DNA from: Escherichia phage WPEC2
Length of the DNA stretch: 64,000 nt
Sequence record: PV691511.1
Reading direction: 5' to 3' (one strand)
The notes below the pieces were generated by a model, which ran no database searches, was not told where the DNA came from, and was given only the letters and a program-made list of their open reading frames with translations. Positions 29,304 to 29,784 of the stretch are shown piece after piece. The position numbers and the translations under genes are program-made. Position 1 is the stretch's first letter. Every line of letters begins with the position of its first letter.

Positions 29304-29784
29304 TCTAGCCTCCTAAACGCGTCTCTGACGCACTTTTTATATATAAGATGATAAATCACCTTACCTAGTAAGTGAACTTGCTCTACGAGCCTCTTATGAA
29401 GCTTATGTTATAGGATATACTATTGCTACCTGTTTAAGCAAGGTTTTTGCACACAGAAAATAATTTTTAATAAAACTCTTGACTTTTGTGTTCGAAGTAT
29501 GCTACCCTAGAAATCTATTAACGAGCGCAGCGAGTTAAGGTTTTAGGTTGTTGATGTAGTACTCTGTACTCAAGTACTGTACTCTGTACTAGATTAATAA
29601 TTATTAAATATTAATAATAAATAATTATTAGATCTAACAAACAGGTACAGTGTATCAGAACTGGTACGTACAGATCAACTTCTATCAATTAAAAATAAAA
29701 TAATAAATTATTATAAATAATACTTGATCTATAGATCAGTATGAAGTACAGTACGGAACATCTCAACAAGAATGGAGGTGTGCA
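29304..29784. promoter_or_regulatory. divergent intergenic control region with repeat arrays
   Basis: no ORF; GTACTCTGTACT x2 (29559-29590), quasi-palindromic AT block 29593-29631, GATCTATAGATC palindrome (29726-29737). Confidence 0.55.
29479..29508 (+). promoter_or_regulatory. promoter, TTGACT-N18-TGcTACCCT class
   Basis: TTGACT 29479-29484, TG at 29500-29501, TACCCT 29503-29508; same motif on minus strand at 49589-49617. Confidence 0.45.

Follow-up and report, generated by a model that had tools for sequence, protein, structure and literature searches.

A probable divergent early promoter and leader region with a recurrent promoter–mini-hairpin module in Escherichia phage WPEC2

Phapecoctavirus phages are widely isolated for Escherichia coli therapy, and their transcription and replication are almost uncharted. 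In Escherichia phage WPEC2 (record PV691511.1), a stretch of 64,000 nucleotides (nt), hereafter referred to as the window, contains an intergenic gap at positions 29304–29784 that is crowded with GTAC repeats and AT-rich palindromes, which a reading of the sequence alone (the sequence-only reading) had taken for binding sites of a regulator or for a second origin of replication. What does this gap do, and which of its elements matter? Here we report a comparative analysis that provides a concrete, testable map of one main control region of Phapecoctavirus phages. Sigma-70-type promoters that are conserved among relatives lead out of the gap in both directions, which bears out its description as a divergent control region, and one of them is followed by a small hairpin with which it forms a module present in three copies per genome. 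With slightly more confidence than doubt, we read the gap as a divergent early promoter and leader region between a leftward block of nucleotide-metabolism and ligase genes and a rightward tRNA island, an ordinary kind of element in which the conspicuous repeats are accessory. Two points deserve attention: the promoter–mini-hairpin module, by which the early transcripts of the whole subfamily are probably defined, and the fact that a cluster of GTAC sites has survived in a genome that avoids this tetramer.

The stretch 28800–30600 is 100% identical to Escherichia phages WPEC1, WPEC4 and WPEC6 and 95–99.8% identical to about 60 Phapecoctavirus genomes of ~150 kilobases (kb); the window belongs to a phAPEC8-like myophage of the genus Phapecoctavirus, subfamily Stephanstirmvirinae. 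Close relatives were compared in an 11-genome alignment of the gap region. The divergent comparators were Phapecoctavirus phiWec190 with a similar IMG/VR contig, phi92, Klebsiella phage FKP3 and Citrobacter phage Tr1; the rightward side was aligned in five lineages and the leftward side separately, and the lineages span at least two genera. A literature search found no transcriptome or promoter study of Stephanstirmvirinae. The gap is flanked by a leftward open reading frame (ORF) at 28980–29303 and a rightward ORF of 61 amino acids (aa) at 29785–29970, and an ORF check gave no credible ORF inside it.

Promoters pointing both ways out of the gap

The rightward side of the gap contains two candidate promoters, P1 and P2, each preceded by an AT-rich tract, and the ribosome-binding site of the first rightward ORF.

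29454–29478, + strand: AT-rich tract of P1, CAGAAAATAATTTTTAATAAAACTC, like an upstream (UP) element; its sequence is similar to the UP element and −35 context of rrnB P1, CAGAAAATTATTTTAAATTTCCTCTTGTCA, taken from the E. coli K-12 genome
29479–29508, + strand: candidate promoter P1, with TTGACT, an 18-nt spacer and the extended −10 TGcTACCCT; copy 1 of the three module copies (pattern scan and conservation)
29683–29723, + strand: AT block 2, UP-element-like, 39/40 A+T, directly upstream of the P2 −35
29724–29752, + strand: candidate promoter P2, with TTGATC, a 17-nt spacer and TACAGT; GATCTATAGATC (29726–29737) lies in the spacer and GTAC array 3 (29744–29755) overlaps the −10
29774–29787, + strand: Shine–Dalgarno sequence GGAGGT and ATG of the first rightward ORF (29785–29970, 61 aa, a PHROG of unknown function)

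P1 has the hexamers and spacing of a sigma-70 promoter (17 ± 1 nt, A at −11, T at −7), reading TTGACT-18-TACCCT, as does the second module copy of the window (TTGACT-17-TACCCT), and both are conserved in the five lineages. In both, a TG stands one base upstream of the −10 hexamer and does not vary across genera, as in the TGaTACCCT of phiWec190. Across the five lineages P1 conforms to TTGAC(T/A), 18 nt and TGcTACCCT, with TACCCT invariant, and it is nearly invariant in the 11 close relatives. Its upstream tract is invariant in the 11-genome alignment save for two 1-nt changes and has the form of a UP element, CAGAAAATAATTTTTAATAAAACTC-TTGACT standing beside CAGAAAATTATTTTAAATTTCCTC-TTGTCA of rrnB. 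The pattern TTGACW-N15-19-TGNTANNNT has four matches in the window against 0.84 expected, three of them in the rightward island.

In P2, TTGA is invariant, and four lineages fit TTGAYY, 17–18 nt and TA(C/G)A(G/C)T; Tr1 has TTGACC and TATAGT at an ambiguous spacing of 15 or 21 nt, and in EP57 the P2 −10 is deleted. Upstream of P2, phiWec190, phi92, FKP3 and Tr1 likewise have at this position a tract that is rich in A+T and partly palindromic. Judged from the alignments, this tract is conserved in kind.

The leftward side contains the following elements.

29348–29376, − strand: candidate sigma-70 promoter, with −35 TTCACT (29376–29371), a 17-nt spacer and −10 TATCAT (29353–29348), from the promoter scan
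29319–29331, − strand: hairpin GCGUC-AGA-GACGC in the predicted 5′ untranslated region (UTR); fold z −2.3 as RNA and −2.9 as DNA
29310–29315, − strand (CCTCCT on the + strand): Shine–Dalgarno sequence AGGAGG of the leftward ORF 28980–29303, invariant in six lineages
29645–29678: GTAC array 2 (unstranded) with a candidate second leftward promoter (− strand), TTGATC (29678–29673), 18 nt and TGaTACACT (29657–29649), found as the scan match TGATACACT

The leftward promoter is kept across genera, with better hexamers in FKP3 (TTGACA-17-TATCAT) and Tr1 (TTGACT-17-TACCAT) and weaker ones in phi92 (TTTACT-17-CATATC), and transcription would be expected to start just downstream of its −10. The hairpin, which had been described as GCGTC-tct-GACGC next to the leftward ribosome-binding site, was confirmed directly upstream of the Shine–Dalgarno sequence of ORF 28980–29303. 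Its structure is retained while its sequence changes, to GCUC-GUUACA-GAGC in phi92 and GCUC-ACAGA-GAGC in Tr1. On the + strand the same letters scored as a rightward terminator, a reading that we rejected: there is no rightward gene upstream, and the phiWec190 variant, GCGUU-AGA-GACGC, can form its G.U pair solely in the minus-strand RNA, which marks it as a 5′ UTR hairpin.

The candidate second leftward promoter has a counterpart at the equivalent place in FKP3 (TTGAGT-18-TGaTACTCT), and array 2 aligns with CTGCTCTATACTGATCAAC of phiWec190. This segment appears dispensable, because it is deleted in the relative nieznany and its spacing is disrupted in BI-EHEC. In phages of the phiWec type, an additional leftward ORF of 70 aa (phiWec190 locus 2573–2785) separates the leftward promoter region from P1; its window counterpart, at 29380–29450, is a mere ~70-base-pair (bp) indel-prone spacer.

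Bidirectional promoters at such junctions were predicted earlier in phage rV5 (PMC3606486).

A promoter–mini-hairpin module in three copies per genome

Shortly downstream of P1 lies a small hairpin, and promoter and hairpin recur together elsewhere in the window.

29518–29538, + strand: mini-hairpin TTAA-CGAGCGCAGCGAG-TTAA, core at 29522–29534, in which GCGCAGC is an instance of the GCGNAGC motif; core invariant across genera
49562–49617, − strand: module copy 2, the second in the window, with TTGACT, 17 nt and TGcTACCCT, then CCCCGAAGGG, then CGAGCGATAGCGAG (blastn and pattern matches)

The sequence CGAGCG(C/A)AGCGAG is invariant across genera at 13–16 nt past the P1 −10, and over the three module copies the hairpin lies 7–21 nt downstream of the TGcTACCCT −10. 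Its loops vary (GCA, GAA, GAUA, GGGA, GAAA and GGUA) on a fixed stem, CGAGC/GCGAG. All loop variants fit the GCGNAGC/GCGNNAGC class of mini-hairpins, in which two G–C pairs close G-N(1–2)-A (here GCGCAGC, GCGAAGC, GCGATAGC, GCGGGAGC, GCGAAAGC and GCGGTAGC), extended by tandem G.A/A.G and a C–G pair, and the predicted fold agrees with this structure. The pair flanking the core covaries, being formed in 19 of 24 sequences by four types of pair, and overall covariation was 0.235 compared with 0.131 in shuffles (1/500), with lower values in slid controls; only the flanks carry this evidence, because the search pattern itself fixed the core columns. Hairpins of the GCGNAGC/GCGNNAGC class are known from the G4, St-1 and alpha-3 origins, RSF1010 ssiA and the N4 virion-polymerase promoters (reviewed in PMC13037366).

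Searched with the P1 region, blastn returned two places per genome in most Stephanstirmvirinae records, and an IMG/VR pattern scan found three module copies in each of three complete-length relatives. Copy 2 has an ortholog in nieznany at 66,435, and the third copy, which lies outside the window (phAPEC8 20318–20503), is kept in 132 phage records. The hairpin follows both module promoters in the window and all three copies in related genomes, and in the window both copies stand at the head of a series of small ORFs with no known function. We met the module only in Stephanstirmvirinae, and a literature search found no description of it. Most likely, the unit of P1-type promoter and hairpin marks major early transcripts.

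The hairpin without the promoter is more widespread. An unrelated phage group (IMG/VR contigs, for example at 7754–7790 of one) has conserved the 14-mer CGAGCG(A/G)TAGCGAG just past the stop codon of a gene for a 703-aa tail-fibre-like protein, the C terminus of which reads ...VGFRLACYPV, and 5–15 nt before the next gene, with flanks that vary from contig to contig. As it sits there between late genes, the hairpin is not tied to promoters, and a general role, as a very stable structural cap or a pause signal, fits better than a specific operator. Two scans were set aside. A loose IMG/VR scan for TACCCT...CGAGCGCAGCGAG gave 23 matches against ~19 expected by chance by our own estimate, mostly noise, and one large family found in the stricter scan matched TGTTACCCT through a coding C terminus (...ACYPV*), sharing the hairpin and no promoter.

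The ops element recognized by RfaH, GGCGGTAGCGTG (12 nt), contains the same hairpin class, and RfaH reads its loop bases G5 and T6. The gap copy, a GCGCAGC triloop, lacks the G-T loop, and copy 2 has A-T in its loop; copy 2, AGCGATAGCGAG, agrees with the ops sequence at 9/12 positions. In an alternative reading, the module would be an undescribed cis-signal at all three major early promoters: the hairpin, in non-template DNA or nascent RNA, would pause or modify the polymerase in the manner of ops or nut, or would stabilize a replication-priming R-loop, and the GTAC cluster in the P1 leader (described below) would be a protein-bound platform, hence its survival. The occurrence of the 14-mer in the unrelated group would make such a signal a widespread phage element. 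We regard this combined reading as unlikely. Should the hairpin turn out to act as a signal in elongation or replication, phage biology and engineering would gain a new small cis-element.

Repeats in the P1 leader

Between the mini-hairpin and array 2, the P1 leader contains the following elements.

29535–29558, + strand: short 9-nt repeat TTAAGGTTT, in 1, 2 or 3 copies among relatives, with expansions in UP17, Ro121lw and anhysbys
29559–29590, unstranded: GTAC array 1, a degenerate 7-nt tandem array (GTACTCT, 4.7 copies by TRF) with GTACTCTGTACT twice; an insertion unique to the phAPEC8 clade
29591–29632, unstranded: AT palindrome 1 (39/40 A+T), centred at 29612/29613, the core of a larger imperfect palindrome at about 29576–29651
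29628–29643, unstranded: TTAGATCTAACAAAC block, including the palindrome TTAGATCTAA; GATCTAACA(G/A)AC also occurs in the phi92 and Tr1 leaders

The motifs that had drawn attention to the gap are all present where they had been placed. GTACTCTGTACT lies at 29559–29570 and 29579–29590, GTACAG at 29645, 29668 and 29746, AATAATTATTA at 29596–29606 and 29620–29630 within the AT block, the arms of which (29595–29612 and 29613–29630) are 89% complementary, and GATCTATAGATC at 29726–29737. A search of the whole 64-kb window found the exact 12-mer GTACTCTGTACT at its two gap positions only; in most close relatives the second 12-mer reads GTACTCCGTACT.

These elements vary greatly among relatives. GTAC array 1 and AT palindrome 1 are absent at this position in phiWec190, phi92, FKP3 and Tr1, and within the phAPEC8 clade the whole segment 29535–29760 is plastic: 13 nt of array 1 are missing from dw-ec, a deletion of 66 bp in nieznany takes out array 2 and most of AT block 2, and BI-EHEC has an expanded AT block. 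AT block 2 is 72% identical to AT block 1 plus TAGATC, as a 39-nt repeat, D1. Because of this repeat and the shared order of RTAC words, AT block and TAGATC, we consider the leader repeats to be duplicates. GTAC array 1, AT palindrome 1 and the TTAAGGTTT repeat would be slippage-prone duplicates of the segment upstream of P2 (RTACTCTRTAC, AT block and TAGATC). Since they are specific to the phAPEC8 clade and dispensable, the leader repeats are probably accessory at most. As an observation in its own right, the variable number of TTAAGGTTT copies could serve as a strain marker for Phapecoctavirus isolates.

A GTAC cluster in a GTAC-avoiding genome

Of the 256 tetramers, none is more depleted in the window than GTAC, with 50 sites in 64 kb (observed/expected 0.27 by a Markov model and 0.22 by composition), followed by CCGG (0.39) and GGCC (0.45). 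In a 50-kb sample of E. coli K-12, GTAC (0.90) and CCGG (1.16) are not depleted, which makes the depletion of these two tetramers a phage property that looks like avoidance of 4-base restriction sites. Restriction systems specific for GTAC exist (PMC2588503, PMC10273834). The avoidance of GTAC, CCGG and GGCC in the phage thus points to restriction pressure and bears on host range.

Against this background, 10 of the 50 GTAC sites of the window fall within 197 bp of the gap (29559–29754; Poisson P 2e-16), whereas 20,000 random placements gave a maximum of 6. The intergenic count is 10 in the window compared with 0–3 in the other lineages. The spacing is irregular (7, 8, 5, 7, then 59, 19, 4, 78 and 5 nt), with no helical phasing.

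BI-EHEC has lost most of this cluster. Eight to nine of the ten GTAC sites of the region are destroyed, seven by a first-position G to A change (GTAC to ATAC). The loss extends beyond the gap: in a comparison with the window at 9.9–64 kb (37 kb aligned), 15 of 29 GTAC sites are lost, 13 of them as ATAC, at a divergence of 1.2% and with a symmetric substitution spectrum, and the GTAC ratio is down to 0.17. The BI-EHEC lineage appears to be actively purging GTAC, unless this is a sequencing artefact; the sequence context around the changes is not fixed, which argues for real mutations over artefacts. Like the avoidance itself, this further purging bears on host range. As it has hit the cluster too, GTAC as such is apparently not needed there.

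The sequence-only reading had regarded the motifs as sites for a regulator or an origin. For the most part, these motifs are not the parts that are conserved and look functional. The hairpin by the leftward ribosome-binding site and an AT-rich palindromic tract upstream of P2 are conserved; GTAC array 1 and AT palindrome 1 are confined to the clade. The GTAC arrays are not conserved in relatives, units having been gained and lost and the BI-EHEC sites destroyed, which weakens the idea of GTAC operators. Given that the repeats are absent outside the clade, partly deleted in nieznany and dw-ec and mutated in BI-EHEC, they are unlikely to be essential operators or origin iterons.

An operator array also has arguments on its side. 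GTAC or RTAC words and small palindromes (AATAATTATT twice, TTAGATCTAA and GATCTATAGATC) might bind a phage early protein or a host factor that shuts off or boosts P1, P2 and the leftward promoter as infection proceeds. The ten GTAC sites stand together although GTAC is the most avoided tetramer of the genome, and with no such avoidance in E. coli the cluster has survived selection against the word. The BI-EHEC changes, mostly G to A, keep TAC in 7/9 cases, and words like RTACTCTRTAC recur in phi92 (ATACTCTATAC) and, inverted, in FKP3 (ATACTCTGTAC), which together hint at a looser constraint on RTAC; it is mainly because of this hint that an operator role is retained here. Arrays 3 and 2 also overlap −10 elements, those of P2 and of the candidate second leftward promoter, respectively. 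Against an operator array, the GTAC sites are irregularly spaced and unphased, the degenerate 7-nt tandem structure of array 1 is typical of slippage, dw-ec and nieznany have lost units, phiWec190 and Tr1 retain the promoters without having the arrays, and no gene for a DNA-binding protein was identified adjoining the region. Overall, an operator array is a minority possibility. The host operators compared by eye (LexA CTGT-N8-ACAG, TrpR GTACT-N8-AGTAC, NarL TACYYMT and Fis) do not fit.

The repeats might instead act at the RNA level, with the P1 leader serving as an antitermination signal (nut/boxA-like or put-like), as a sponge or decoy for a host ribonuclease, or as an expandable repeat RNA like the pseudo-ToxI of PhiTE. 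As RNA, the whole P1 leader folds better than its shuffles (z −3.8). It is rich in repeats that vary in copy number among relatives, like the PhiTE escape locus (PMC3475682), and it lies upstream of ~2 kb of untranslated tRNA genes, where protection from Rho could help. In phiWec190 and Tr1, TGCTCTATAC and TGCTCTATAG, respectively, resemble boxA TGCTCTTTAAC. By contrast, the boxA-like word of the window, TACTCTGTACTCAA, matches at 8/13 positions, which is the chance level, and is inverted in FKP3, so that we rejected it as a boxA. No Rfam family matched 29200–30800 at E values up to 5, and a gathering-threshold Rfam scan of the whole window returned tRNAs only and nothing in the gap. The BI-EHEC changes break the long leader hairpin, and no compensatory changes were found in the 11-genome alignment. 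TRF found periods of 7 and 17 only, and the repeat units of 7, 9 and 20 nt fall short of the 34–45 nt of type III antitoxins. The element would also be absent from P2 transcripts. Taken together, these findings make an RNA-level function very unlikely. A ToxI-like reading from shared words (TGCTACC, CTAGAAAT and AGGTGATTT) was dropped, as the words lie on different strands and form no repeat unit.

AT-rich DNA and the possibility of an origin

No 40-mers of the window are richer in A+T than the two AT blocks of the gap (39/40 each), 29587–29736 is its most AT-rich 150 bp, and 29570–29655 forms a long imperfect palindrome with strong folding potential as DNA (z −5.6). In the AT-only tract, palindromy and the repeated 10–11-mer are of borderline significance only, by our own estimate. 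The third most AT-rich 40-mer of the window (37/40) lies elsewhere, at 54594–54634, directly past the portal gene.

One feature would suit a second origin: a promoter, a stable mini-hairpin and the most AT-rich DNA of the window occur together at the orientation switch. A transcription-primed origin, of the T4 oriF/oriG or T7 primary type, could be built from these parts, in that the P1 RNA would form an R-loop in the AT-rich DNA, the mini-hairpin on the displaced strand would stabilize the loop or load a primase-helicase, and replication would start at the orientation switch. The strong, conserved promoter upstream of an AT-rich unwinding element has the anatomy of such an origin, and nothing beyond anatomy; the occurrence of the hairpin class at the single-strand origins cited above and the palindrome point the same way, as does the location at the divergence point of the gene blocks in canonical genomes, where a switch in GC skew would fall. 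There is no iteron array, since the repeats amount to a degenerate array of 7-nt units and a pair of 12-mers spaced 20 bp from each other, out of helical phase; DnaA-box matches occur at the chance rate with no cluster (one relaxed match at 29445); and no initiator gene adjoins the gap, the neighbours encoding small proteins of unknown function. Moreover, the module is present three times per genome, and its copy at 49.6 kb has no AT block comparable to that of the gap, AT block 2 lies exactly at the UP-element position of P2 in all lineages, AT palindrome 1 is confined to the clade, and nieznany has lost most of block 2. An origin here is therefore, in our estimation, quite unlikely.

GC skew was rejected as an origin indicator, being confounded by transcription direction and by a rearrangement of the window; past 33 kb the skew turns negative again because of the displaced 33.27–49.94-kb block only. 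Skew in phages tracks the direction in which genes are transcribed, and in rV5, skew changes were likewise seen only as linked to transcription (PMC3606486). A P1-like pac site (in the sense of phage P1) or a Dam or SeqA cluster was also rejected, as GATC is not enriched in the gap (4 sites in 481 bp, against ~2 expected from 4.4 per kb window-wide). The ends of published records in this region are arbitrary.

A model for transcription of the region

The reading that we favour assigns these elements to early transcription by host sigma-70 RNA polymerase, which would start at three conserved promoters. The transcript of the leftward promoter (29376–29348) would have a short 5′ UTR that folds as the GCGUC/GACGC hairpin just ahead of the ribosome-binding site. 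P1 (29479–29508) would be a strong extended −10 promoter behind its rrnB-P1-like UP tract, and its transcript would open almost immediately with the small, unusually stable CGA-GCG(N)AGC-GAG hairpin, for which we prefer the role of a 5′-end protector or stabilizer or of a signal to the elongating polymerase. P2 (29724–29752) would be weaker, behind the second AT-rich tract, with both AT tracts probably serving as UP-like upstream elements. Transcripts from P1 and P2 would cross three small ORFs and eleven tRNA genes as far as the terminator at 32804–32822.

Several observations weigh against this model. The promoter scanner performs near chance in this AT-rich window (11 found against 8.0 expected), and all promoters are consensus matches. 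P2 is weak by consensus (8/12 by our own count) and was missed by the scan, and the leftward promoter of the window is weak as well. A UP element would not require AT blocks as extreme as these. The GTAC cluster is hard to dismiss as neutral filler in a GTAC-purging genome, the retention of TAC in BI-EHEC hints at a constraint on RTAC, and the RTAC words described above recur in phi92 and FKP3. Within the clade, the arrays are conserved neither better nor worse than the background, which is uninformative either way.

Genes around the gap

The rightward block in the window is an island of 3.4 kb, consisting of small ORFs and eleven tRNA genes (30763–32685) and closed by an intrinsic terminator at 32804–32822; the ORFs adjoining the gap are small PHROGs of unknown function. 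Within the island we noted further strong sigma-70-like promoters at 29967–29995, 30524–30553, 31111–31140 and 32081–32110 (+ strand), three of them with an extended −10, and the island seems to be driven by a series of promoters rather than by P1 and P2 alone. To the left of the gap lie genes for ribonucleotide reductase, thymidylate synthase (ThyA), DNA ligase and RNA ligase, and from 50.8 kb onward those for terminase, portal, major head and tail sheath proteins. A 118-aa protein at 26652–27008 (− strand) matches Pfam PF20274 (cREC_REC, cyclic-phosphate processing receiver domain; E 1.6e-13) and is encoded close to an RNA ligase-like gene (24651–25583) and the tRNA cluster, which suggests a set of genes for RNA repair or processing.

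The 16.7-kb block at 33.27–49.94 kb differs in position from every published relative. Its junctions at ~33,270 and ~49,940 are spanned by 0 of 50,697 records, WPEC1 included; in BI-EHEC, the equivalent of window position 33270 is joined straight to that of 49937 and the block is absent there, and in ESCO13 it sits at 113,987–130,181, ~54–70 kb further along. The source genome is thus either rearranged or misassembled at ~33.27 and ~49.94 kb; the surroundings of the gap are colinear with all relatives. The WPEC records showed 8–13 separate match places for 1-kb junction queries. In canonical genomes the tRNA island continues into the terminase, portal and head genes, and for this reason the gap is the main point of divergence there, between the leftward block and a long rightward block. 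The sequence-only reading had the gap separate leftward from rightward gene blocks; in the window, the rightward block is the 3.4-kb island only.

Comparison with known systems

The closest parallel to the promoters is E. coli rrnB P1/P2. In both cases two promoters, here rightward and ~245 bp apart, each have an AT-rich tract upstream, at about −40 to −60, the sequence of the P1 tract is close to that of the rrnB P1 UP element, and the promoters drive stable-RNA genes (in the phage, by prediction, tRNA genes). Unlike rrnB, the phage −10 is TACCCT with an extended TG instead of TATAAT, the GC-rich discriminator is absent, no Fis sites were recognized, the similarity to boxA is weak and the leader contains clade-specific repeats.

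At the level of genome organization, the gap resembles the junctions of rV5-like phages (Kropinski et al. 2013, PMC3606486), which belong to the same supergroup of ~140–150-kb myophages and have sigma-70-like promoters, some with an extended −10, at orientation switches. The published rV5 promoter table, in contrast, contains neither a TACCCT promoter nor the GCGAAGC word. The PhiTE pseudo-ToxI escape locus (PMC3475682) resembles the predicted P1 leader as a transcribed tandem-repeat locus between genes, in an rV5-like phage, with a copy number changed by strand slippage; its units are 36 nt long and mimic a known antitoxin RNA, whereas the units here are 7–20 nt long and belong to no known antitoxin family.

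T4 oriF/oriG and the T7 primary origin share with the gap a promoter followed by very AT-rich, easily melted non-coding DNA at a transcription-unit boundary. They differ in that the AT tracts here coincide with UP positions and are partly deleted in viable relatives.

The hairpin shares with the mini-hairpin DNA motifs and ops a GCG(N1-2)AGC core with sheared G.A closure at a region of transcription initiation. Those DNA motifs stand in a single-strand origin or a hairpin promoter, whereas the hairpin here lies downstream of the −10 of host sigma-70 promoters in a double-stranded DNA myophage, and unlike ops, the GCA triloop of the gap copy lacks the G-T loop bases read by RfaH.

Finally, lambda nutL/nutR differ from the module in having boxA, of which the phage shows no convincing instance (CGCTCTTA / TGCTCTTTAACAA; the best word in the window matches at 8/13 positions, the chance level). 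The phage stem, in addition, contains tandem G.A mismatches, and the same hairpin is also found in an unrelated phage group, where it separates late genes. A counterpart of the N protein was not identified, although no search aimed at N homologs was made. In architecture, however, the two are alike: in each, a small conserved hairpin with a loop of the G-N-(N)-A type follows each major early promoter at a short distance, in several copies per genome.

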